Shown: positions 2,949-64,000, counted from the first letter of the stretch. The stretch is 64,000 nucleotides of DNA from an uncultured Eubacteriales bacterium (GCA_964406505.1 CAYORX010000007.1:10841-74840), one strand, 5' to 3'. The notes: generated by a model not told the origin, from the letters alone. A program made the numbers and translations.

Positions 2949-4415
2949 TTATGGTATGCTTAAAGGCATCTTCCGATATTGGGTAATATTTTCGAACGAA
3001 TAAGCGATCTTAATTAGCGTACCTTCGCTCCACGGGCGGCCGAGAATTTCTAAACCTATGGGGACTCCGATAGGAGCATCGTCGGTGGGCGAAGAAAACC
3101 CTGCAGGTACCACAACCGATGGAAAGCCCGTGACCGAGCCCAATGCCCCATTTCTTTCAATTTGACTTCCGCCCACAAGACACGCCAACCGTTTTTGATG
3201 GGGAAATATGAGAGCTTCAATATTTTCTTTAGCCATTATCTCCATTACTTTGTCCTGAAGTTTAGCTTTTTTTAGAAGTCTGTCTTTGTAATCTACACTA
3301 TCAGTGCTTAAAGTTTGTGCGTGCTTAAGGTTCTCTTCAATATTTTTATGATACTTACCTGAGGCCAAAACATCGGCCATTGAATGTACTGATGCTCTAT
3401 CGCCAAGATTAACGAGATAGCTATCAAGATCACGTTCCAAATCATGCAAATGTACGCTAATTTCAGATACAATCTGATCTACATCTAGAATCTCTTCTAT
3501 ATCTATTAACGTAGCGCCGTTTTCAGCCATTACTTCGATACATCGTCTGATTGCGCTGTTTACATCCTCGTGTTCCGGGCTTAGCCCAAAAAAGCTTTTT
3601 AGTACACCGAGCCTTACACCTTCAAGGCCACTATGTTCAAGATATTTCGTATAGGATTCGGGAATGTTTTTCACTGCCCATGCCGTGGATGGATCACCTG
3701 GATCGTATCCTGAAATCACATCCAAAACTTTCACAGAATCTTCCACCGTTCTTGTGATTGGACCAGCGGCATCTTGGGTAAGAGAATATGGGATAATCCC
3801 ATTACGGCTTACCAATCCGATCGTCGGCCTAATTCCAACTAAACTACAAGCTGATGCCGGTGACCTTATAGAGTTTATCGTATCAGTACCAATACCTATC
3901 ACACCAAAGTTTGCAGCGATACCCGCCCCAGTTCCTCCGCTAGATCCGCCTGGTGTCCTTGTAAGGTCATAAGGATTAAGTGTCTGGCCCAGAATTGAAC
4001 TCACAGTTTCTCCCCAAACAGCAAACTCGTGGAGGTTAACTTTCGCCAATATTATGGCACCAGCATCCAAAAGTTTTTTAGTAATAAACGCATCTTCTTT
4101 AGGAACATAATCTTGCAGACTTAATGAACCGCCTGTGGTAGGCATATCTTTTGTATCTACATTGTCCTTAAGCAAAACCGGTATGCCGTGGAGTAGCTTT
4201 AATGAACCGTTTTGCTTAAACTCCTTATCTTTTTCGTCAGCTATATCCAAAGCCTTGGGATTCAAATATATAATGGAGTTTAGTGACGGTCCTTTTTGAT
4301 CATAGGCCTCTATCCTTTTCAAATAACCTTCTATCAACTGCCGAAAACTTAGTTCGCCACGCCTCACTGCCTCGTGAATACCGGCAATAGTCAATTCATT
4401 AAAACTTATTGCCAT
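2949..4415 (-). CDS. amidase (amidase-signature family)
   Basis: GGSSGG motif plus the Ser-cisSer-Lys context (..TPGGSSGGTGAGIAA.., ..GTDTINSIRSPAS..). About 490 aa. Start probably ATG at 4415 (MAISFNELT..); the ORF track extends to 4427. Confidence 0.85.
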   Translation of the reverse strand: MAISFNELTIAGIHEAVRRGELSFRQLIEGYLKRIEAYDQKGPSLNSIIYLNPKALDIADEKDKEFKQNGSLKLLHGIPVLLKDNVDTKDMPTTGGSLSLQDYVPKEDAFITKKLLDAGAIILAKVNLHEFAVWGETVSSILGQTLNPYDLTRTPGGSSGGTGAGIAANFGVIGIGTDTINSIRSPASACSLVGIRPTIGLVSRNGIIPYSLTQDAAGPITRTVEDSVKVLDVISGYDPGDPSTAWAVKNIPESYTKYLEHSGLEGVRLGVLKSFFGLSPEHEDVNSAIRRCIEVMAENGATLIDIEEILDVDQIVSEISVHLHDLERDLDSYLVNLGDRASVHSMADVLASGKYHKNIEENLKHAQTLSTDSVDYKDRLLKKAKLQDKVMEIMAKENIEALIFPHQKRLACLVGGSQIERNGALGSVTGFPSVVVPAGFSSPTDDAPIGVPIGLEILGRPWSEGTLIKIAYSFENITQYRKMPLSIP

Positions 4416-9429: not shown

Positions 9430-10266
9430 ATGATACGGAATAAGTCAAACACAGAATCTGTAACCCGCAATTCGCCAATTGGTATTTTTGATTCGGGAGC
9501 AGGTGGCTTAACAGTTGTAAAGCAAGTTCAAAGATTGCTTCCGAACGAAAATATTTTGTATTTCGGAGATACAGGCCGGGTCCCTTATGGACCCAGGCCT
9601 TTATCGCAAGTACGCAAGTTTTCACTGGAAATTTCGACTTTTTTGCACAGGCAAGGAGCCAAAGCTCTCGTTATAGCATGCAACACTGCCACCGCAGCCG
9701 CACTAACAGCAATCAAAAACTCTCTTTCCATCCCAGTAATAGGCGTGGTTGAACCAGGAGCTAAAGCAGCATTCGACGTTGCTGGTTCTAAAGGAAAAGT
9801 GGGCCTAATAGCTACCCAAGGTACCGTGGACAGCAATGTTTACGAGATAGAACTGACAAAACTCGGCTTACAATCAGCAGTTTTAAATCAAGCTTGCCCT
9901 GAATTCGTTATATTAGTAGAACAAGGAATGACTGACAAAACTGCCGTGGAAAATGCTACCCGAAAATGTACCAGAGTTTTCCGCGACCAACCCGTGGATG
10001 TTTTGATATTAGGATGTACTCACTTTCCATTGCTTTCAGCGTATATCCAAAAACAAATACCCAAAGTAAAACTTATCGATCCGGCTATACACACTGTAAA
10101 ATCTTTGCGATCACAGTTGGAAGAAAATGATCTTTCCCATGACCCCTCAACAAATTCAGAGTACAAGTTTTTTTGCACTGGAGACCCTTTAGAGTTTAAG
10201 AAAAATATTGACTCTATTCTTGGCTCCAATGCTCATAAAGTAGAACATGTAAACTTAAATTCATAA
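9430..10266 (+). CDS. murI: glutamate racemase
   Basis: IGIFDSGAGGLTV, YFGDTGRVPYG, ACNTATA and GCTHFP motifs. Confidence 0.9.
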   Translation: MIRNKSNTESVTRNSPIGIFDSGAGGLTVVKQVQRLLPNENILYFGDTGRVPYGPRPLSQVRKFSLEISTFLHRQGAKALVIACNTATAAALTAIKNSLSIPVIGVVEPGAKAAFDVAGSKGKVGLIATQGTVDSNVYEIELTKLGLQSAVLNQACPEFVILVEQGMTDKTAVENATRKCTRVFRDQPVDVLILGCTHFPLLSAYIQKQIPKVKLIDPAIHTVKSLRSQLEENDLSHDPSTNSEYKFFCTGDPLEFKKNIDSILGSNAHKVEHVNLNS

Positions 10267-10404
10267 CGATAGCAAACTCAATATCGCCGGGATGACAAAC
10301 AATACGAGGCTGCAATGGTTACCGCAGCCTTAATTTGTTCAAACACGATAAAACCTGACAGGCTCAATATTTGTGTCACTAAGTTTAAAAGGAGGTAATT
10401 ATGC

Positions 10405-11649
10405 ATGCCCCAAAACATCCTGGACCCAGTTTTTAAAGCCCGTCAAAAAAAATCACGGCTCATCATAGGCCTTATGTCTGGAACTTCTGCAGATGGAATC
10501 GATGCTTGTTTATGCAAAATACAAGGGGTTGGAGAAACAACTCGAGCGGAGATTTTGCATTTAACATCTGTTCAATATCCATCGTCCGTCGAAACCTTGC
10601 TCACTAGTGAAATATCTAACTTAAATATTGAGCAAATAGCTAGACTGAATTTCTTTATCGGCAAGATTTTTGCAGAGGCTGCAGTTAAATGTATCCTGGC
10701 AGCAGGTTATAATGCTTCTCAAATAGACGCAATCGCGTCACATGGACAAACGCTTGTTCATTTACCTACCGCAGATGCAAGCGATCCTATACTCGTACCT
10801 GCCACTTTGCAAGTAGGAGATATTTCAGTCATTGCACAGCGTACTGGGATACTTACCATAGGTGATTTTCGTCCAGCGGATATGGCCCAAGGGGGTCAAG
10901 GAGCACCTCTCGTACCTTATGCAGATTTTCTTCTCTTCCGGGATCCTAAAATAGGGAGGATAATTCAAAACATTGGGGGAATTGCAAACTTAACTTATTT
11001 ACCGCCAAACTGTACACAAAAAGATGTAATCGCCTTTGATACCGGCCCGGGCAACATGGTGATCGACGCTGTGGTCAATATGCTTACACAGGGTAAATAT
11101 TCAATGGATACTGATGGAGGCTTCGCTACATCTGGAAATGTAAATCAAAAATTGCTGTCTCATCTTCTAAATGATCCGTATTTCGCCATAAAACCACCCA
11201 AAACTACCGGTCGGGAAATGTTCGGCGTTAAATACGCCCGCCAAATCTTGAACATTTATGAAGACTATACAGATGCATTGTTGATTCCAAAAGACCGCCG
11301 CAAACACATATGTAGCTTAGTAGCAACCGTTTCTGAATTGACAGTTCGAACGATTATAGAATCTTATAAATCATGGATTCTTCCAAAGGGCCCCATTCAC
11401 GAGGTTATCTTAGGTGGAGGTGGCGCGCAGAATCCTTATTTATGCGAAAGATTGAACAGCGGTTTGCAAAAAATAGATCCAAACATACGCGTGCTCACTC
11501 ATGAAAATTTCGGCATTCCAAACAAAGCTAAGGAATGCCTAGCTTTTGCAGTGTTGGGAAACAACTTTTTGGGACATGTACCTAACAATATGCCTAGTGC
11601 AACAGGGGCTGAAAAGGCCGTGGTCATGGGCAAATTGGCGCTGCCATAA
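10405..11649 (+). CDS. anmK: anhydro-N-acetylmuramic acid kinase
   Basis: GLMSGTSADGIDA N-terminal signature of AnmK. 414 aa. SD AAAGGAGG. Confidence 0.85.
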   Translation: MPQNILDPVFKARQKKSRLIIGLMSGTSADGIDACLCKIQGVGETTRAEILHLTSVQYPSSVETLLTSEISNLNIEQIARLNFFIGKIFAEAAVKCILAAGYNASQIDAIASHGQTLVHLPTADASDPILVPATLQVGDISVIAQRTGILTIGDFRPADMAQGGQGAPLVPYADFLLFRDPKIGRIIQNIGGIANLTYLPPNCTQKDVIAFDTGPGNMVIDAVVNMLTQGKYSMDTDGGFATSGNVNQKLLSHLLNDPYFAIKPPKTTGREMFGVKYARQILNIYEDYTDALLIPKDRRKHICSLVATVSELTVRTIIESYKSWILPKGPIHEVILGGGGAQNPYLCERLNSGLQKIDPNIRVLTHENFGIPNKAKECLAFAVLGNNFLGHVPNNMPSATGAEKAVVMGKLALP

Positions 11650-11722
11650 ATTTGTATTATGCAGGAACCGCGTAGCTTTTTCACGAAGTGCTTTTAGTGA
11701 CTAAATAAAAGGAGGATTTTAC

Positions 11723-12535
11723 GTGAAAGTTTTCATTTCAAGCGATATTGAGGGCATTTCGGGTGTCGTTACATCCGGAGTTCACACTTCTCCTGGAGGA
11801 AAAGATTATGGGCGTGCCCGCACGCTTATGACGCAAGAAACTAATGCTGCAGTTGAAGGAGCAGTAAATGCTGGTGCTGATCAAATAATAGTAAATGATT
11901 CACACGGGCCAATGAATAACATCCTTATTGAAAAACTAAATCCAGCGGCTAATTTAATTACGGGATCACCAAAACCCCTTTCTATGATGCAGGGCATTGG
12001 AAAAGATTGTTCGGCTGCCATATTTGTGGGCTATCACTCACGCATGGGCACACCGGGGGTGCTGAGCCATACTATATCCGGCGGAAGTGTCGCTAATGTA
12101 TGGATAAACGATATTCTAGTAGGCGAAACGGGCATTAACGCAGGATTAGCGGGATACTTTGGCGTGCCAGTGGTTTTAGTCTGTGGAGATAACGTACTAA
12201 GCGACGAAGTCAAAGAACTTTTACCTCACACAAAAACAGCCGTTGTTAAAACTGCCGTAACCAGGCAATCTGCCCTATGTCTACCACCCGAAAAGGCTCA
12301 AGACCTAATTCGGCAAAAGACAGAAAAAGCGCTTAAGTCGTTGGATTCGGCCAAAGTATGGTTACCAAAATCTCCGATTACTTTTAAAATAGAATTTAAA
12401 GACTCTGGTCAAGCCGAAAATGCATCACACCTTCCTTATTCAGAAATGATCGATCCGAAGACCCTCGCTTTCACCGCAGATGACTACTTAACTGCATTTA
12501 TGGGACTTAGATCTATGATAGCTTTATCTCGGTAA
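11723..12535 (+). CDS. dppA: D-aminopeptidase DppA (peptidase family M55)
   Basis: MKVFISSDIEGISGV..VNDSHG..NN.., colinear with Bacillus DppA. GTG start with AAAGGAGG. Confidence 0.85.
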   Translation: MKVFISSDIEGISGVVTSGVHTSPGGKDYGRARTLMTQETNAAVEGAVNAGADQIIVNDSHGPMNNILIEKLNPAANLITGSPKPLSMMQGIGKDCSAAIFVGYHSRMGTPGVLSHTISGGSVANVWINDILVGETGINAGLAGYFGVPVVLVCGDNVLSDEVKELLPHTKTAVVKTAVTRQSALCLPPEKAQDLIRQKTEKALKSLDSAKVWLPKSPITFKIEFKDSGQAENASHLPYSEMIDPKTLAFTADDYLTAFMGLRSMIALSR

Positions 12536-12560
12536 CTTTCTTAGGATAAAGCAAAACGAT

Positions 12561-12593
12561 AAGGCACGTGAGATTCTACGTGCCTTATTTTTA
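12561..12593 (+). terminator. rho-independent terminator after dppA
   Basis: AAGGCACGT-gagattct-ACGTGCCTT followed by ATTTTTA. Confidence 0.7.
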
Positions 12594-12621
12594 ATTTAAT
12601 AGATTACGGTATGTAAGTTAA

Positions 12622-13542
12622 TTACTCCACCAATCTTGCGCTAACAATCTCCCAAAGTCGCCTGATAGCTTTACCTGCTTCACAATCATAATCTGTAGCA
12701 GGAACACCGTTTACCATAGCTTTTGGGACAGCATGATCGTACGGTATTTCGCCCGCAAGATCGCAATCCATTCGTTCGGCAATATCTTTAATGGTCTGGG
12801 TGTTTTCTAGGTCAATATCATATTTATTTATACAAATAAGCACGGGCACTTGGAAGTGATGACAAACATCGATTATACGCTCAAGATCACTTATCCCCGA
12901 CAAGGTTGGTTCAGTAACGATAAGCGCTAGATCTGCACCTGTGACACATGCAATAACCGGACATCCGGTGCCGGGAGGGCCATCAGTTATGATTATATCT
13001 TTATTCTTTTTCCGTTGGATCTCTTTGCCTTTTATTCTTACGGCAGAAACAAGCTTGCCAGAATTCCCTTCGGCTGGCTCTAACCGCGCATGAATAAAAG
13101 GACCATGATCTGTTTCTGAAATATACCAATGTCCAGACAATGCATCTTTCATAGTGATTGCATTTTCGGGGCATACATGGAAACAGAATCCACAACCCTC
13201 ACACAATAGTTCAATGGATTGAAATGTTCCGTCATCGTTTTTAACAATAGCCCCAAATCGGCAAGTTTCAAAACATTTACCGCAATTAGAACAAATGCTA
13301 GGATCTATATAGGCTTTTTTTGATGCATAAAATGGATACGTCTTTGTATTCCTGGGGTTCAAAAGAAGTGCCAAGTTAGCTGCATCTACATCGCAATCAC
13401 ACAGTACGGCTTTTTGAGCAAGATAAGAAAACCCTCCCGCAACCGAAGTCTTGCCTGTACCACCTTTTCCGCTAAGAATTACCAGTTCGCGTCCTTTACT
13501 TGCACTAGATGACTTGGTTTGTGAATCTACCTGCATTGGCAA
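12622..13542 (-). CDS. MinD/ParA-superfamily P-loop ATPase with inserted 2x[4Fe-4S] ferredoxin domain
   Basis: Walker A SGKGGTGKTS. Two Cys clusters: CSNCGKCFETCRFG and CEGCGFCFHVCPEN. Confidence 0.8.
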   Translation of the reverse strand: MPMQVDSQTKSSSASKGRELVILSGKGGTGKTSVAGGFSYLAQKAVLCDCDVDAANLALLLNPRNTKTYPFYASKKAYIDPSICSNCGKCFETCRFGAIVKNDDGTFQSIELLCEGCGFCFHVCPENAITMKDALSGHWYISETDHGPFIHARLEPAEGNSGKLVSAVRIKGKEIQRKKNKDIIITDGPPGTGCPVIACVTGADLALIVTEPTLSGISDLERIIDVCHHFQVPVLICINKYDIDLENTQTIKDIAERMDCDLAGEIPYDHAVPKAMVNGVPATDYDCEAGKAIRRLWEIVSARLVE

Positions 13543-27159: not shown

Positions 27160-27384
27160 TCACTACCCCCCAGGTGGTTTTCATCAACTTACCTAAACTG
27201 CGAAACTACGTTCACCTCCTGAATATTTGATTCAAGCGCCTACAAATCGATAGTTTGTACAATTTCCCACAAGATAAAATAAGCGCCTCCTCTGGCGTTT
27301 ATGATATTAATAGAGATCATGCGCATTGGCAGATCGCTTACCTTTCCAACCGTAATTACAGATGTACCGGCAAAGATCCCTATT

Positions 27385-27510
27385 TAATTACGGCTCCTTT
27401 CCAAAGGAGGGAGGCGGATCCGTTTGCAGATCAACCCTATCGGCTGTGGCCCATGAAGCAACATAGCTTGTTAGGAACCAAAGCTCGGAGCACATATTCG
27501 ATTTGGAGCT
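27385..27510 (-). promoter_or_regulatory. molybdenum/tungsten-cofactor (Moco/Tuco-type) riboswitch in the tupABC leader
   Basis: The minus strand reads ..GUGCUCCGAGCUUUGGUUCC....CGCCUCCCUCCUUUGGAAAGGAGCC. This matches my recollection of the 3' core of the E. coli moaA Moco element (..GUGCUUUGG....CGCCUCCC....UGGAAAGG..). It sits upstream of a tungstate transporter, the classical context for this riboswitch. Confidence 0.55.
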
Positions 27511-30444: not shown

Positions 30445-30700
30445 CGGCCAATAAAAAAACTTCTCGTCCGTTAGGGACGAAAAGTCTGTTTTCGCGGTAC
30501 CACCCTAGTTGGCAGACTAGCTGCCCGCTTTGTGAACAGTACGGGAGATTACTCCGATACCTTTTCCTTTTAACGGCGGATTCCCGGCCAAGACTACTAT
30601 GAATTCACCTTAGCAGTTTAGAAGGGAACTTCAGCTGGTTTCGTTTTAAATGTGCTTTCAGTCACGGCACTTTCTCCCTAGAAAACTAACCCAACTTACT
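30445..30700 (-). promoter_or_regulatory. T-box riboswitch leader with intrinsic terminator, controlling the ABC transporter operon
   Basis: Minus strand contains UAGGGUGGUACCGCG (T-box consensus AGGGUGGNACCGCG) at 30494-30509. A terminator follows immediately: CUUUUCGUCC-cuaa-GGACGAGAAG + UUUUUUUAUU at 30451-30485, ~70 nt upstream of the SBP start. Confidence 0.7.
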
Positions 30701-30741
30701 TTCCTTCATCATTACTTTTGACAAAATTTTATCTTTGACCT

Positions 30742-31963: not shown

Positions 31964-34069
31964 TTAAACTCCTGATGCATAATAACGAAACCAGTTTAAC
32001 ATTCTTTCAAACCGATCAAATCTGTGAAGCGGTTTCAAAAATCCATGAAATTCATCTGGATATCTAACAAACACAGCAGTTTTTCCGAGTTGTCTAAAGG
32101 ATAAGTAAAATTCTTCTGATTGTGAAACAGGACACCTTAAATCACCGTCACCATGAATAAACATGACAGGCGTTGTGACTTTAGGTACATAAGAAATAGG
32201 GGGCCTTTCTAAATACTTTTCGGACACTTTCCAAGGGAGTCCCCCCACATGGTGTTCAGCGAACATCGGTATATCACTTGTACCCCACATGCTGTGCCAA
32301 TTAGAAATGATAGCCCCTGCCGCTGCCGCCTTAAAACGATCTGTTTGGGTGATTATCCAACCTGTCACAAACAGTCGCGATGGGTCGGCGATACGTATTG
32401 TTACCACATAATCTATACCTGCCATTATATCAAGATAGTCAGCATCCCTCCAATCCCCTACACAAGCATAAACGAACTTTTGACCATACGATTGCGACCC
32501 ACGAGGGTTAGTATACAATACGGCGACGGCGCAATTTTCGCTTCCAAATATCTGGCATTGGAACATGAACGCAGAGCCATATACACCGTGTGGCCCACCA
32601 TGTATGAACAGCACCGTTGGAAAGATAAGGTCGACGTTTTCAGTATAATTCACTGGATACACTAGATAACCGTCTGTATCCCATCCCTTGGCACCTTTAT
32701 AGGTAAACCGTTCACATGCACCAAGAACATAATCCGTTAACCACGTATTCAAATCGGTAAGTTTAGTCAATTGCAAATCCGCCTCAGCACTTTCGTCAAA
32801 CAAATATAGGTCGTCAGGTGTTTCAGACGAACCAATTTGAAGCATCACGGTTTTTTCAAGGCCTCTTGATTGGTTAATATGCGACACAGTCTGATAGCGG
32901 CCATACCATACCGATTTGATCAATGGTTCAGAACTCGATTTATCGTTATTACAGTCGATTTGAAGTCGAAAAACTCCCGTTGCACCTTGGTCGCTTGCCA
33001 AAAACGTAATCGTATTCGGATCTTCCCAAAAATAAGGAGGGTTCGGAGAGAAGTAACGCATATCAGGAGATACGTAATTGCCTATAGGCCTATCAAATTG
33101 TTTAGTCAAATTTTTCGCGTTGTTCATCGAAAGTGGTTTCAAATCAAAAGATTCTTCTTGCGAATTTAGTTTTTCCACAAATAAAGCAACGTCAATCACC
33201 CAAAGTGCAGTAGTGGTAGAATTTTTGTATTTTACGTCGTGTCCCAAAAAAACTATTTTTTTACCGTTAGGAGACCAACGTGGAGCCCTTATCGAGCCTG
33301 TGCCATCGATCAGCCAAACGGTTCTGCCCGTAGATATTTCAAGCAACCAAAAGCCTTGTTTTTGAACATAATCGGCATCTTTCCGTCTTAATGCCGAAAT
33401 GACAAGATGTTTGCCATCAGGCGACAAATCTGAATCTAGATAATTATAATTTCTGTTAGTAAGACGCCCTACGAAACTTATGATTTCTGAAAATTCAGGT
33501 ACATTGATAGGAAAGTTAACCATATGTGAGTGGGAAGTCATATCGCCGAAATAACCCTCGCCGTCGAATCGATAAGATAACCGCGTAATGACCTTGATTT
33601 TAGATTCGACGCCTAGTGGTTTTTGCTTTATACCGTTTGAGCGATCATTATCGCCCTTTTTTAAAGTTTCGGTTTTACTATCCAAAAAATCAACGCTAGC
33701 CTGACACTCAGCCCTAAGTCTATCCCATTTAGGCGCACCCGGGTGCGGAATCCAATTATCGTCTTTAGCGAAAACTTTAGATGTAAACACAATATGTATC
33801 CCATCAGGTGCCCTTTTAGGTGCTCCGATTACACTTTGTTCTGTACATAAATGCCATGGTTCACCCCTGTCAGCCTGAGACACCACAAATAAAACCTTTG
33901 TATCATCTGGTGACACTTGTGCGTCCCCTACATTTTTAAACTTATATAAATCTTCAAGTTTCAAGGTCTGAGAATCACTAGGTTTGTTATCCCGATTTTT
34001 GTTAAATTCCCAACCGTTTCGTTTAAAATTATCATTAAAAGCGTCATCGGCGTTTTTGGACCTCATCAT
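31964..34069 (-). CDS. S9 (prolyl-oligopeptidase/acylaminoacyl-peptidase) family homolog with non-canonical nucleophile elbow
   Basis: N-terminal beta-propeller-like region plus a C-terminal alpha/beta-hydrolase core (FIHGGPHG..NPRGSQSYG.. ..IHGDGDLRCP.. ..YPDEFHGF). Where GGSYGG is expected the sequence reads TGWIITQ (codons GGT TGG ATA ATC ACC CAA, no frameshift). Confidence 0.6.
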   Translation of the reverse strand: MMRSKNADDAFNDNFKRNGWEFNKNRDNKPSDSQTLKLEDLYKFKNVGDAQVSPDDTKVLFVVSQADRGEPWHLCTEQSVIGAPKRAPDGIHIVFTSKVFAKDDNWIPHPGAPKWDRLRAECQASVDFLDSKTETLKKGDNDRSNGIKQKPLGVESKIKVITRLSYRFDGEGYFGDMTSHSHMVNFPINVPEFSEIISFVGRLTNRNYNYLDSDLSPDGKHLVISALRRKDADYVQKQGFWLLEISTGRTVWLIDGTGSIRAPRWSPNGKKIVFLGHDVKYKNSTTTALWVIDVALFVEKLNSQEESFDLKPLSMNNAKNLTKQFDRPIGNYVSPDMRYFSPNPPYFWEDPNTITFLASDQGATGVFRLQIDCNNDKSSSEPLIKSVWYGRYQTVSHINQSRGLEKTVMLQIGSSETPDDLYLFDESAEADLQLTKLTDLNTWLTDYVLGACERFTYKGAKGWDTDGYLVYPVNYTENVDLIFPTVLFIHGGPHGVYGSAFMFQCQIFGSENCAVAVLYTNPRGSQSYGQKFVYACVGDWRDADYLDIMAGIDYVVTIRIADPSRLFVTGWIITQTDRFKAAAAGAIISNWHSMWGTSDIPMFAEHHVGGLPWKVSEKYLERPPISYVPKVTTPVMFIHGDGDLRCPVSQSEEFYLSFRQLGKTAVFVRYPDEFHGFLKPLHRFDRFERMLNWFRYYASGV

Positions 34070-59995: not shown

Positions 59996-61501
59996 TCATC
60001 GCCCAATCAATTTTTTTGCAACAAAAGTCAAGGGAATAAGATCGTTTCTATTAACTAAATCGATATCAAATTTGCGGTTAAGCGCTGCAAAATGTCTTAA
60101 GCCGAAAGCGATTTTGTTTAGATAGGAAAAAACGCCTATCGCACCCGTCGAAAAATTATTGGCATCTGTCCCGTACAACACACGTAAATCAGGCAAGTCT
60201 GCGAAAATACTATCCACGGTATCCCCATATTGTTTAAATAATCTTGGGACTTTTCCTTTTTCTATCATAGTACCGATAGTTTTTGCGCTCATGGCTGCTG
60301 CCATGCTTGATCTACATAACCCGACGGCGGTTACAAAACCATCACCATAAGCCAAAGCCTTATAAACTTGATCTTCAGATGCCAGCCCACCGGTAATAGA
60401 TATTGCTGGTATGTATTTGCCTTCTGCTTTCAGTTGTTTTGCTATATCTACTACTACATTTTCCATACATACAGTAGGAAGACCCCACTCATTCATCATC
60501 TTACAAGGACTATATCCACTACCGCCGCCTGCCCCATCAAAAGTCACCATATCTACATTACATTCTGAAGCCATACGAAGCACTCGTTCTAAATCCGAAG
60601 GGTCGAAACCTGCCATTTTAAAATACACATTTTTAGCGCCCATGTCTCGTACTTGTTCTATCCTTGACGCCATGAAATCTTCATCCCACAGCGGCAATCT
60701 GCCATACATATAAAAATTCGGGCAAATGTTTTGCTCGTAAGCCTTTTGTACCTCGGGATCAGAAGGATCCGGATGTATGAGACCACCTAAGGCCTGTTTC
60801 TCTAGCGCTTCGTCCAAACCACTCAATCTGTTTACCGGTTGTGTTCCCTTTGCGCCTTGGCCGAACTTAAATTCAATAGCTTCTACTCCATGAGACAAAG
60901 CGTATTCGGGAAGACGGACCATATCATCTTCCACATTACACTGTAAAATGATTTGGCCAAAACCTCGATAGTATTTAGAAAATGAATTAGTTATTTCTTT
61001 AAGCCACGGGAAACTCGTAATACGACCCGATGTCATTTCTAACTCTGGATCTTTGCTTTTGGCATCTTCCCCTATTACACAGCACACACCTGCCATTGCT
61101 GCACCCGCAAAATAATCTTCCCAATTTAGTTTTATAAGTGCTGGTAGAATTATAGGCAACTCCATCTTAACCGGGTGTATACTTCCGAAAGAACGCGAAA
61201 GCGAAACGTTAAATATAGTAGCTTCAGCATAATTTTCCTTAACACCGGATGCGCCAAATACTCGACCGTTAATATTGTAATGCGAAAAATCTATCGGGTA
61301 GTCTTTTTCAGAAGCAATCTGATTAGCCCCTGTTGTTGTGGGATACACAGTTTGTGCTCCAAGCACGGCAGCTAAAGCAATTTCGCAAAGTCCGGCACAC
61401 TCTTCTGCACACAAAGAACACATTCCGGATTGCGGTGAAATATGTGATATGCGGTTCTGGGTATTGTTGAATGCAGATGATAAAGGCGGTTGATATGTCA
61501 T
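59996..61501 (-). CDS. glutamate-synthase-related FMN/Fe-S protein (GltB domain-2-like, archaeal-type standalone)
   Basis: N-terminal CSLCAEECAGLC cluster. ..DGAGGGSGYSP.. and ..ISITGGLASEDQVYKALAYGDGFV.. are typical of the GltS FMN-binding domain. SD AAGAGGAGG. Confidence 0.65.
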   Translation of the reverse strand: MTYQPPLSSAFNNTQNRISHISPQSGMCSLCAEECAGLCEIALAAVLGAQTVYPTTTGANQIASEKDYPIDFSHYNINGRVFGASGVKENYAEATIFNVSLSRSFGSIHPVKMELPIILPALIKLNWEDYFAGAAMAGVCCVIGEDAKSKDPELEMTSGRITSFPWLKEITNSFSKYYRGFGQIILQCNVEDDMVRLPEYALSHGVEAIEFKFGQGAKGTQPVNRLSGLDEALEKQALGGLIHPDPSDPEVQKAYEQNICPNFYMYGRLPLWDEDFMASRIEQVRDMGAKNVYFKMAGFDPSDLERVLRMASECNVDMVTFDGAGGGSGYSPCKMMNEWGLPTVCMENVVVDIAKQLKAEGKYIPAISITGGLASEDQVYKALAYGDGFVTAVGLCRSSMAAAMSAKTIGTMIEKGKVPRLFKQYGDTVDSIFADLPDLRVLYGTDANNFSTGAIGVFSYLNKIAFGLRHFAALNRKFDIDLVNRNDLIPLTFVAKKLIGR

Positions 61502-61748
61502 TTCACATCCTCCTCTTTTACTTTGATGGATGAGCTAGTTATGTTTCACAATGTCACAATGTCTAAAATTGCAGCAAACCTTAAATAGCGTTCCGATTTT
61601 TACAAAACAAAGTTAAGATCTGATAAGTTTGGGTTACCACAATTGATCGTAAAGCTAACAGGTGTGAACTGCAATAACCAAAACACTATTAGCTAGCCTC
61701 GCTGCCTATCTCATTAGTGGAAGACGCAATAAAACAAAAAAGTCGTCG

Positions 61749-61847
61749 CCTTCTTTTCTCAACTCAAAGGCTCCACGGTCGCATGGGGAATTCCGATGTG
61801 GTGCTTTTATATACCTTCTTTTCTCAACTCAAAAGCTCCACGGTCGC
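61749..61847. repeat. pair of 34-bp direct repeats separated by a 31-bp spacer
   Basis: CCTTCTTTTCTCAACTCAAAGGCTCCACGGTCGC (61749-61782) and the same with a single G->A change (61814-61847). Confidence 0.8.
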
Positions 61848-61903
61848 TGTATGAACGGATGATGTCACCTTGTGTTTCACCGCTTGTATAAAAAAGTACT
61901 ATA

Positions 61904-62110
61904 TGCAGCATCGCCTGTGCAACATCGCCTGTGCAGCATCGCCTGTGCAGCATCGCCTGTGCAGCATCACCTGTGCAACATCGCCTGAGCAGCATCGCCT
62001 GTGCAGCATCGCCTGTGCAGCATCACCTGTGCAGCATCACCTGTGCAGCATCACCTGTGCAGCATCGCCTGTGCAGCATCGCCTGAGCAGCATCGCCTGT
62101 GCAGCATCGC
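61904..62110. repeat. tandem array of ~15 copies of a 14-bp unit (GCAGCATCGCCTGT with G/A, G/A, T/A variants)
   Basis: Directly visible periodicity. The unit length is not a multiple of 3, and it produces the 14-aa-periodic pseudo-ORFs in the track. Confidence 0.9.
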
Positions 62111-62500
62111 AAATAAAATTGTAACAGACATCGTGTTTTGTTCGATAAATAATATCGTCTACCCATGCGCTTAGATCCTCAAGCAAGATACCTAGAAGGG
62201 TTTTTAACACCTGAACAACGCTTTTCGCGTAAAATTTGTGAATAAAAACGATCATATCACCTAGACCCGCATGGCCATTAAAGGGCCACTTTTCATGTGT
62301 TTTTAGCGTTTCAAACTCAGTTTCGTTAGTTACAATCTCGTATCATGTGTAGTAATTCTAAATCTAGCTAAATCAGGATTTTCCGGCCTGTCGTAGTATA
62401 CTTTTAGAAAATGACTCACAGAACTGAAACTAACAGGGCCTGGTTCATGTGATGAAAACAGTTCGGACAGTCGATGTATTCTTGGATTCCTTTGTCGGCA

Positions 62501-62816
62501 GGTGTTTAAGCGGAAACCATGCTTTGTCGGTACAGATGATGTACCATCCGACGACGATTCGGCCTCGTTCCAGGGTAAATGATACAGATGATGTACCAAC
62601 TAACCGATGTTCTGGCGGAAAACGAGGCTTGTCGGTACAAGTGATGTACCATCCGGCTGGTGTTTAAGCGGAAACCATGCTTTGTCGGTACAGATGATGT
62701 ACCATCCGACGACGATTCGGCCTCGTTCCAGGGTAAATGATACAGATGATGTACCAACTAGCCGATGTTCTGGCGGAAAACGAGGCTCGTCGGTACAGGT
62801 GACGTACCAACCGGCC
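62501..62816. repeat. tandem duplication of a ~158-bp unit (two copies, a few substitutions)
   Basis: GGTGTTTAAGCGGAAACCATGCTTTGTCGGTACAGATGATGTACCATCCGACGACGATTCGGCCTCGTTCCAGGGTAAATGATACAGATGATGTACCAAC... is repeated from 62501 and from 62659. Confidence 0.9.
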
Positions 62817-63027
62817 GGTATTTTAGTTGTTATGGCAATTAGTTGGTACATGTGGCGTACCATTCTAGACCAACGTTGTTTTCTTGCTACCAACAACGGT
62901 ACATATGATACACCAGTCAATAGGTATATGTATTAATCTAAAAGTACCCGGGTAATAATTGAAAACTTCCCCACCGTAGGATAGGCTTTTCCAGCGAAAC
63001 CGGGCCCGATGGTATATCTAATGTACC
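62529..63027. promoter_or_regulatory. array of nine 17-bp palindromes GGTACA-N5-TGTACC (candidate operator/iteron sites)
   Basis: Sites start at about 62529, 62581, 62634, 62687, 62738, 62792, 62845, 62898 and 63011. Examples are GGTACAGATGATGTACC, GGTACAAGTGATGTACC, GGTACATGTGGCGTACC and GGTATATCTAATGTACC. Confidence 0.6.
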
Positions 63028-63119
63028 AATCCGTGCGTGGTTTCCTTTGGAAGGGAATATTCCGACATATTGGTAACCAGGTGGGCAACAGAAATCCTCT
63101 ATAAATCTATTACAAAACG

Positions 63120-63977
63120 TCAATCCGCAGTTTTTTTATACTTTCCCCTACGCATATCGCGTGCTTTTCCCCTACGGTGGTAGGCTATATATTGCAAGCA
63201 TAACTCTTCTAGACCGCCTGCATACATACCATCCATATCAATGAGTTTGATCGGAACAGATTTGGGGATTTTTTTGAACATGTTTTTCAACGTAAGATCT
63301 TCTGATGTTATGGTAATGAGCATAACGTTGTGTTTGCGGCTTAGTTGCTCTTTAAGGCTGTCCCTAGCCTTGGTATTCGCCAACTTTTTTGGGTCTGGAA
63401 AATCCGAAGTAGTTTCGAAATGTTGCCTGCCTTGGAATTCGCCGGCAATCTTTGCATGAAAACAATATCGATCATACTCGAGAAACTCGCCACTCATGGA
63501 AGATTGGAGAAACCAGGGGCGGACATTGTCTATCCACGGCGATACGTCTATGATTTGCTCAAACCTTAGTTTCATTTTAAACTCGCCGACCCTTGGACTC
63601 ATTCTTATACATTCTCTAATATAGTCAAGTTTAGTTTTTTGGATTCGCTTTGGAAGTGTTGGAATCATTAACTGACTGTTGTCTAGGTGTTTGATGATAA
63701 TCCATTCCTTTTCAACCAAAGAGGCAACCAACCTACTTACTACCGTACGGTGCACACCGATACGACTGGCAAATTCACGAATGGAGCGCGGTTTTAGCAT
63801 TTGTAGCTGCATATAAAGGGACTTAGCCCTTTCATCAATCGAAGGGTCGCAAGCAAGCCCCCTAGGCATAGGTATAACCTGCCTTTGGGATGGAAGAGAC
63901 AAAGCCCGTTCTAAAATTTCCCTCAGTTTGATACTAACACCCCTTGGTAAATAATGACATTCGCCATATATTACCAC
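63120..63977 (-). CDS. hypothetical protein with N-terminal winged-HTH-like segment; C-terminal domain unknown
   Basis: ..KPRSIREFASRIGVHRTVVSRLVASLVEKEWII.. looks like a MarR/wHTH recognition-helix region. No family is recognised for the C-terminal ~150 aa. Start uncertain. Confidence 0.4.
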   Translation of the reverse strand: MVIYGECHYLPRGVSIKLREILERALSLPSQRQVIPMPRGLACDPSIDERAKSLYMQLQMLKPRSIREFASRIGVHRTVVSRLVASLVEKEWIIIKHLDNSQLMIPTLPKRIQKTKLDYIRECIRMSPRVGEFKMKLRFEQIIDVSPWIDNVRPWFLQSSMSGEFLEYDRYCFHAKIAGEFQGRQHFETTSDFPDPKKLANTKARDSLKEQLSRKHNVMLITITSEDLTLKNMFKKIPKSVPIKLIDMDGMYAGGLEELCLQYIAYHRRGKARDMRRGKYKKTAD

Positions 63978-64000
63978 GGAATGACAAGGTTTGGCAATAA

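Follow-up and report, generated by a model that had tools for sequence, protein, structure and literature searches.

What is a dense array of short palindromes doing directly behind the gene for a predicted DNA-binding protein, on an ordinary bacterial chromosome? We addressed this question in a 64,000-nucleotide stretch of DNA from an uncultured Eubacteriales bacterium (GCA_964406505.1 CAYORX010000007.1:10841-74840; hereafter the window), in which nine GGTACA-N5-TGTACC-type sites cluster at 62529-63027. An earlier description made without database searches (the sequence-only reading) had proposed either an operator array for a dimeric DNA-binding protein or an iteron-type replication or partition region. 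Our analysis indicates that the array probably belongs to an undescribed repeat family that resembles the repetitive extragenic palindromes (REPs) and has its own enzyme, and that it is neither a plasmid origin nor a simple operator. With moderate confidence, we read it as one locus of a dispersed tandem repeat family akin to REPs and bacterial interspersed mosaic elements (BIMEs), and as the cognate target of an adjacent candidate nuclease that is not a REP-associated tyrosine transposase (RAYT).

The palindrome array and its phasing

Searching the whole window with GGTACANNNNNTGTACC and allowing up to one mismatch returns eight matches in 62529-63027 and one elsewhere, against 0.05 matches expected for the entire window from shuffled sequence, and a purine/pyrimidine (R/Y) pattern adds the ninth site at 62898, GGTACATATGATACACC. 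These searches confirm the nine-site cluster that the sequence-only reading had placed between a neighbouring repeat locus and the gene. The single outlying match, GGTATATCACTTGTACC at 32268-32284, lies inside the open reading frame (ORF) 31964..34069 and is probably a chance occurrence; the rest of the window holds no second cluster of GGTACA-type palindromes or of the type II palindromes described below. Palindrome 1 (GGTACAGATGATGTACC, 62529..62545) has perfect arms, palindrome 2 (GATACAGATGATGTACC, 62581..62597) carries one arm mismatch and palindrome 3 (GGTACAAGTGATGTACC, 62634..62650) is again perfect. Palindromes 4 (GGTACAGATGATGTACC, 62687..62703, perfect arms) and 5 (GATACAGATGATGTACC, 62739..62755) are duplicates of the first and second, and palindrome 6 (GGTACAGGTGACGTACC, 62792..62808) is a diverged duplicate of the third. 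They are followed by palindrome 7 (GGTACATGTGGCGTACC, 62845..62861), palindrome 8 (GGTACATATGATACACC, 62898..62914), which has two transitions in its right arm, and palindrome 9 (GGTATATCTAATGTACC, 63011..63027). Perfect 6-bp arms are present at only three of the nine sites (62529, 62634 and 62687), not at most of them as had been claimed.

Successive site starts lie 52, 53, 53, 52, 53, 53, 53 and then 113 bp apart, placing eight of the nine sites on a strict 52/53-bp period. This phasing, which the sequence-only reading had missed, is the most informative feature of the array. As a whole, the array (62496..63027) consists of eight phased 53-bp units (62529-62914) and one out-of-phase terminal palindrome (63011-63027), and each unit is a directly oriented element of about 53 bp in which a conserved palindromic core of about 17-25 bp is joined to a fast-evolving linker. 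Tandem Repeats Finder detects a 158-bp unit in 2.1 copies with 95% matches (62496-62823) on top of the 53-bp period, so the duplication is a three-unit block, and six of the nine sites fall inside it as had been described. The region is non-coding, as also proposed before: the period is not a multiple of three, the long ORFs drawn across the array are translations of the repeat, and all nine sites are intergenic. A comparison with a neighbouring strain, suggested in the sequence-only reading as a check on variation of the 158-bp unit, is provided by a second assembly of the same species (L088) with 99%-identical flanks, in which the duplication is missing and six palindromes are present instead of nine; this difference may reflect either true variation in copy number or a collapse of the repeat during assembly.

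The adjacent gene and the arrays of its relatives

The neighbouring gene (63120..64000, minus strand) continues past the end of the window, which cuts its 285-residue ORF at 63120..63977; the 99%-identical full-length protein in L088 (P0001) has 294 residues. Given its minus-strand orientation, the gene has the array on its 3′ side, palindrome 9 being 93 bp past the stop codon, and the earlier statement that the array is directly downstream of a gene for a helix-turn-helix protein therefore holds. Pfam yields only sub-threshold MarR-, TrmB- and IclR-type winged helix-turn-helix (wHTH) matches at residues ~50-97, and similarly weak sub-threshold wHTH matches connect the protein to HTH_36 and to replication-initiator PHROGs. 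The fold is clearer. An AlphaFold model built from 15 sequences was poor in the C-terminal half (predicted local distance difference test score (pLDDT) of 53), and we used instead an alignment of 80 sequences, which gives a pLDDT of 94 and combines a wHTH domain with an alpha-beta-beta-beta-alpha-beta nuclease core. The wHTH domain (MarR/TrmB/ArsR-like; residues ~49-106; 63660..63833, minus strand) bears out the winged-HTH-like segment noted previously: it has a three-helix bundle and a beta-hairpin wing, matches wHTH structures and profiles, and resembles MarR-family proteins, the centromere-binding protein AspA and a multidrug-resistance (MDR) plasmid initiator.

The C-terminal domain (residues ~128-250; 63228..63596, minus strand) has a restriction/homing-endonuclease-like fold. 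The model contains two helices, a core at residues 130-223 and a long C-terminal helix at the end, and the order of core elements is H130-142, E149-152, E168-172, E177-181, H196-215 and E219-223. Residues D169, E180, G183, H186, D206 and K209 are invariant and E132 is nearly so among the 80 sequences, which reach down to 22% identity; this topology, in which strands 2 and 3 bear conserved acidic residues, is that of the PD-(D/E)xK fold. Foldseek matches the domain to viral proteins annotated as restriction endonuclease, homing endonuclease, DUF559 or group I intron protein, with E values of 1e-7 to 1e-4, and comparison with PHROG homing-endonuclease families gives an E value of 8e-9. The nearest Pfam family is DUF2726, faintly recognized in 7 of 26 members. 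No significant match to a curated Pfam or NCBIfam nuclease family or to a solved structure was found, a Protein Data Bank sequence search with a profile of the C-terminal domain returned chance-level matches only, and NCBIfam and PADLOC gave no family and only wHTH-level noise (Csa3, CARF and MkoB). Fold and motifs together point to an active PD-(D/E)xK-type nuclease. At E ≤ 1e-10 the protein family comprises 419 representatives of 50%-identity clusters, and its named members are all annotated 'hypothetical protein' and come from metagenome-assembled genomes (MAGs) of Bacillota or Symbiobacteriaceae.

Homologues of the protein have arrays of their own. We compared fourteen close homologues and six genome loci from Bacillota MAGs, including Ca. 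Fermentithermobacillaceae; most of these loci are metagenome assemblies, in which arrays may be collapsed or split. Every locus that encodes a homologue of at least 50% identity and includes downstream sequence carries a 53-bp-period array ~100-470 bp past the stop codon, and the half-site varies with the protein clade between GGTACA, GGTGCA and GGCTCT. GGTGCA-N5-TGCACC arrays follow the gene in L001-L003 (in L003, about 14 phased units can be read, with 10 strict matches) and in L004, where the contig ends inside the array; the same type of palindrome occurs in L005-L007, L011 and L012. L013 has a GGTACA/GGCACA array and the window a GGTACA array, and a clade with ~54% identity (L009, L014, L015 and L016) has type II arrays of the form GGCTCT/C-N5-(A/C)GAGCC. 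One MAG encodes both paralogues, each followed by its own array type, and additionally has a gene-less type II array beside a tRNA-Pro gene; among the 785 kb of loci that were fetched, type II arrays are confined to those of genomes with a type II gene. More distantly, the gene for a 36%-identical homologue (L094) has seven CTGCCAAG..CTTGGCGG palindromes behind it, spaced at 42 bp, and the gene for a 25%-identical homologue (L096) has a 241-bp unit in 9.6 copies that contains a palindrome with 18-nt arms. The start of the recognition helix tracks the half-site across these proteins: H-R-T accompanies GGTACA in two lineages, N-R-R/A accompanies GGYGCA, N/S-R-N accompanies GGCTCT and S-R-E accompanies GCCAAG. 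No palindrome in a RAYT-like position upstream of the gene is present within 1.2 kb at nine loci.

The arrays also leave traces in the assemblies. Several short contigs stop right after the nuclease gene (ends of L087, L091 and L092), as expected if a repeat follows, and runs of N marking scaffold gaps lie inside arrays of L013 (11260-11355 and 19725-19830). Arrays thus break short-read assemblies, by gaps and by contig ends in or beside them, and unit counts from MAGs are therefore lower bounds.

Arrays of the same type are dispersed through the genomes of relatives. We scanned metagenomes for pairs of perfect type I palindromes at a distance of 53 bp, which yielded 69 loci, and excluded classical GTAG-tagged REP clusters (L017, L019, L053, L081 and L083) and an unrelated homogeneous 53-bp array (L024). 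The excluded REP/BIME clusters come from unrelated metagenomes and bear a coincidental likeness to type I units, with GGTGCAC..GTGCACC stems at 53-55-bp spacing; they have alternating orientation or GTAG/CTAC heads. Collapsing 59 arrays gives 27 non-redundant loci, a number that includes the gene-linked arrays of L001-L013 and the window, with 3-19 units each at a strict 53 bp, and all 27 lie between ORFs. The gene itself is present in only one of the 69 scan loci (L080), on scaffold FZPS01000194.1 (1.82 Mb in GCA_900198705.1). Thirteen array loci are named for this scaffold, and at least 141 units were counted in 12 arrays on its pieces. The sequence-only reading had stated that a palindrome common throughout the genome, as a generic REP-like element would be, would speak against its proposal, and in relatives the palindrome is of this kind.

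Across 288 distinct units the consensus reads A-W-T-GGTGCA-YGTGG-TGCACC-ATTTT, with the outer GG and CC conserved in about 100% of units and the remaining ~28 bp almost free except for a weak GAAAC motif. The central asymmetric motif (YCAYR/YGTGR) keeps a single orientation throughout each array. Higher-order repeats of two or three units recur in other arrays, and arrays at different loci of FZPS01000194.1 have spacer families in common: 13 of 19 L033 units lie within 4 of 26 mismatches of an L042 unit, and the median nearest-spacer distance between arrays is 9 compared with 13 for shuffles. The arrays evolve in concert. Their surroundings are biased as well, since 33 of 50 array flanks are gene tails (binomial p = 0.03; flank calls based on ORFs are approximate) and arrays often start 13-60 bp past a stop codon.

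DNA recognition and the competing explanations

Base identity rather than pairing is what the 288 units conserve in the palindrome. Among 165 distinct palindromes, arm mismatches compatible with G·U pairing number 60 on one strand and 63 on the other. Periods of 42 and 53 bp correspond to 4.0 and 5.05 helical turns, and this spacing is kept while the linkers diverge beyond alignment; within a site the half-site centres are 11 bp apart, and successive sites are five turns apart. Conserved identity, the lack of a G·U strand bias and whole-turn spacing argue for protein–DNA rather than RNA recognition and favour duplex DNA recognized by a dimeric protein. Lineages differ by a symmetric A-to-G and T-to-C change, as either a dimer site or a hairpin would allow. 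Most likely, the protein encoded immediately upstream recognizes the core as double-stranded DNA. For the earlier operator proposal, this means that the geometry and the comparison of clades agree with sites for a dimeric DNA-binding protein, but 'operator' is too narrow a term because the array is downstream of the gene rather than at its promoter and the protein has a nuclease domain.

These features suggest a mechanism in which the protein would bind as a dimer, with its two winged-helix domains reading two half-sites one helical turn apart, and in which the 52/53-bp period would set successive dimers on the same face of the DNA. The PD-(D/E)xK domain may then nick or cut in or beside the units. 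Breaks within a tandem array, followed by repair, could lead to gain, loss and homogenization of units, to duplications and to changes in copy number, and repair might now and then insert copies of unit blocks at further permissive sites in 3′ intergenic DNA, which would account for the many gene-less arrays of the same type in relatives.

Several points weigh against this explanation. The array with its phasing, its linkage to the gene, the change of palindrome with protein clade, the dispersal in relatives and the domain folds are observed, whereas binding, dimerization, cleavage and a role for the nuclease in array dynamics are steps that we infer. Gene–array adjacency in the closer clades is largely inherited, leaving few independent associations among about four palindrome classes, and the distant homologues L086 and L095 have no array in the 240-410 bp available downstream. 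The window's own genome shows one array in the 64 kb examined. Spacer sharing between loci could result from ectopic gene conversion, with no need for a dedicated enzyme. Dispersed arrays point the same way as the upstream gene in 21 of 26 non-redundant loci; for the opposite flank the figure is 12 of 24 (Fisher p = 0.036). This bias, like the preference for 3′ ends, would fit a transcript-level role; even if duplex DNA is the target, it leaves room for an additional effect at the level of the transcript.

The last of these points also speaks for an RNA-level explanation, which we consider unlikely: the units would be hairpins in the 3′ untranslated regions of upstream genes, acting as terminators, 3′-end stabilizers or a protein sponge as proposed for REPs, and the neighbouring protein would be incidental or a regulator. 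Apart from the position of arrays shortly after stop codons and their co-orientation, it can draw on the type I unit, which reads as a hairpin followed by ATTTT in the co-oriented direction, on the few terminator-like calls, which all fall on the co-oriented strand, and on the minus strand of the window array, which folds better than shuffles (z = -5.9), although whole-region RNA folds are uninformative owing to the repeats. The balanced G·U counts and conservation of identity run counter to it, and an array of hairpins would have no need of exact 53- or 42-bp spacing despite diverged linkers. Terminator-like calls in the arrays of two relatives (2 of 13 and 1 of 13 units) are not above shuffles, and there are none in the window array, the units of which lack a T-run; on these counts we rejected the reading as intrinsic terminators, which consist of a G+C-rich hairpin followed by a T-run. 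Rfam identified nothing relevant at gathering thresholds across the whole window or in an E-value scan of 61450-63200, and the window array has no upstream gene in the preferred orientation.

Equally improbable in our estimate is a passive minisatellite similar to the STAR elements and the variable-number tandem repeats (VNTRs) of MIRU type, spread and homogenized by slippage and ectopic recombination, with the palindrome kept for an unrelated host factor and the linkage to the gene historical. Such a repeat would account for the copy-number difference between two assemblies of one species, the higher-order repeats, the permissive 3′ intergenic location and the fact that most arrays have no gene nearby. 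It leaves unexplained why a different palindromic array lies directly downstream of the gene in each protein clade, even at 25-36% identity, why two array types occur in the MAG with two paralogues and why the recognition helix tracks the half-site.

The surroundings of the array bear on the suggested origin or centromere. The window is a piece of ordinary chromosome, with metabolic genes mostly on the minus strand and two conventional chromosomal cis-regulators, a T-box leader (30470-30721, minus strand, 117 bits) and a molybdenum/tungsten cofactor riboswitch (27378-27502, minus strand, 60 bits). GC skew is negative across its whole length, and we dropped the idea of a chromosomal origin or terminus because the skew does not switch. 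That the array is the iteron-type origin or the partition centromere of a plasmid or integrated element, with the wHTH protein encoded next to it as its binder, is very improbable. Phased repeats do adjoin a wHTH gene, and the HTH_36 and replication-initiator PHROG matches, weak as they are, together with the fold matches to AspA and the MDR plasmid initiator, point in that direction. However, the context is chromosomal with uniform skew, blastn against plasmid and phage collections gives no match, and a motif scan of viral contigs finds the motif pair in one contig only, as a single two-unit match. Furthermore, none of the loci has an adjacent gene for Rep, ParA or ParB, the chromosomes of relatives hold many arrays each and the protein has a nuclease domain, so this part of the sequence-only reading finds no support. 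A degenerate or orphan CRISPR array, the least credible reading, would explain regularly spaced short palindromic repeats with ~30-36-bp intervening sequences, but here the conserved stretch spans only 17-25 bp with a variable 'repeat' centre, the 'spacers' are diverged copies of each other duplicated in blocks, the period is rigid, many arrays occur per genome, and no cas gene is adjacent, the neighbouring protein having only weak wHTH-level matches to Csa3/CARF models. Genuine CRISPR arrays have near-identical repeats of about 23-47 bp with unique spacers between them, usually together with cas genes, and the neighbouring protein belongs to no Cas family. We rejected the iteron, partition and CRISPR readings, as the locus lacks the features that define membership of these classes.

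Other repeats and genes lie close to the locus. At 61904-62110, ~400 bp from the palindrome array, lie 14.8 head-to-tail copies of a 14-bp unit, TGCAGCATCGCCTG, with 93% matches; this repeat is also present in L088 (~4177-4381). Two copies of a 34-bp direct repeat, CCTTCTTTTCTCAACTCAAARGCTCCACGGTCGC, occur at 61749-61782 and 61814-61847 with a 31-bp spacer, an arrangement like that of a CRISPR but limited to two repeats; L088 has one copy at its cut end, the other fetched loci have none, and the pair could be either what is left of an orphan mini-CRISPR or a small duplication. Past the window's right end, L088 has a tRNA-Pro-like gene, read by eye at ~1900-1985 and ~450 bp upstream of the nuclease gene, that is nearly identical to the tRNA-Pro(tgg) called by ARAGORN in L013 (19332-19408); in another MAG, that tRNA-Pro, which has a recognisably similar flank, precedes a gene-less type II array. 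The neighbours differ by lineage (tRNA-Pro in the window species, ABC transporter/MatE in L001-L013 and OsmC/YchF in L009), and the gene–array module therefore sits in different neighbourhoods. A conserved cluster of DUF6754 and three unannotated genes lies a few kilobases from the nuclease gene in L094 (8706-11580) and in L001/L005 (~9800-12800), and its presence near the gene in both close and distant (36%-identity) relatives suggests old synteny of the chromosomal region.

Significance and comparison with known systems

To our knowledge, the origin, spread and persistence of extragenic palindromes have been worked out only for REP/REPIN sequences and RAYTs, a system that is essentially proteobacterial. 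The locus described here suggests that an uncultured lineage of Bacillota has arrived at another, independent solution, distinguished by a wHTH nuclease gene that always has its own palindrome array behind it and by dozens of gene-less arrays elsewhere in the chromosome. Repeat sequence and period (42 or 53 bp) change with the protein yet stay on whole helical turns. A bolder and more doubtful extension is an unrecognized repeat–enzyme partnership of Bacillota, in which each wHTH-PD-(D/E)xK member recognizes a lineage-specific palindrome and creates, homogenizes and disperses phased arrays, as an independent double-stranded DNA counterpart of REPIN–RAYT, in which an HUH transposase acts on single strands; alternatively, arrays and protein might form a new chromosome-structuring nucleoprotein array. 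A literature search, limited in extent and not proof of absence, found no earlier description of such arrays or of the protein family. If binding and cleavage occur as proposed, they would provide a function for a large unannotated family of hundreds of 50%-identity clusters, a new model for nucleases that shape tandem repeats, and natural pairs of wHTH nuclease and target site that might serve as programmable reagents. Copy number varies between assemblies of one species, making the arrays candidate strain markers.

Three groups of known elements share some of these features. MIRU-type VNTRs of Mycobacterium are dispersed intergenic direct-repeat arrays with a short conserved core and variable spacer and copy number. 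We know of no cognate protein gene for these or for STAR elements. The STAR elements of Staphylococcus are likewise dispersed intergenic direct-repeat arrays with a conserved short core and variable spacers and copy number (PMC3532100). By contrast with both, the core here is palindromic, helically phased and linked to a specific nuclease-family gene. Operator, iteron and centromere arrays of dimeric wHTH proteins, such as MarR-family operators and the AspA–centromere complex, have in common with the window array palindromic half-sites one turn apart, phasing on one face of the DNA and sites beside the gene for the binder. They differ in that the present array is downstream rather than at a promoter and is dispersed in relatives, and in that its protein has a nuclease domain and neither a Rep nor a partition ATPase as a companion. 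The nuclease domain shares its fold and its acidic and histidine motifs with Vsr/DUF559-type homing and restriction endonucleases found in phages and giant viruses. The fusion of a sequence-reading wHTH module to a PD-(D/E)xK cleavage module is a FokI-like architecture. Unlike the phage and giant-virus enzymes, the protein here is found with no intron, intein, phage context or adjacent methyltransferase, and it presumably targets tandem arrays that are resident in the chromosome of its host.

The closest parallel is with the REP/BIME–RAYT system of Proteobacteria (PMC2817692, PMC3116915). Both have short imperfect extragenic palindromes, often clustered at regular spacing and, here as judged from relatives, in many copies, a single-copy nuclease-type gene directly beside cognate repeats, a repeat sequence that co-varies with the protein lineage, and a preference for 3′ intergenic positions. 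REPs usually exceed 100 copies per genome (PMC2817692). A GT(A/G)G or CGTC head adjoins their palindrome (PMC2817692, PMC3733652), whereas the 288-unit logo has no such head and shows A-W-T before GG. Units here are all direct with a rigid 53-bp period, and those of BIMEs alternate; palindromes flank the gene on a single side, in contrast to the two inverted REPs around a RAYT gene; the enzyme combines a wHTH domain with a PD-(D/E)xK domain of Vsr/DUF559/restriction-like type in place of an IS200/IS605 HUH-Y1 transposase; and the host phylum is Bacillota. By analogy, the two systems would be functionally parallel, each pairing one single-copy nuclease-type gene with many cognate extragenic palindromes by means of a different enzyme and a different repeat architecture.

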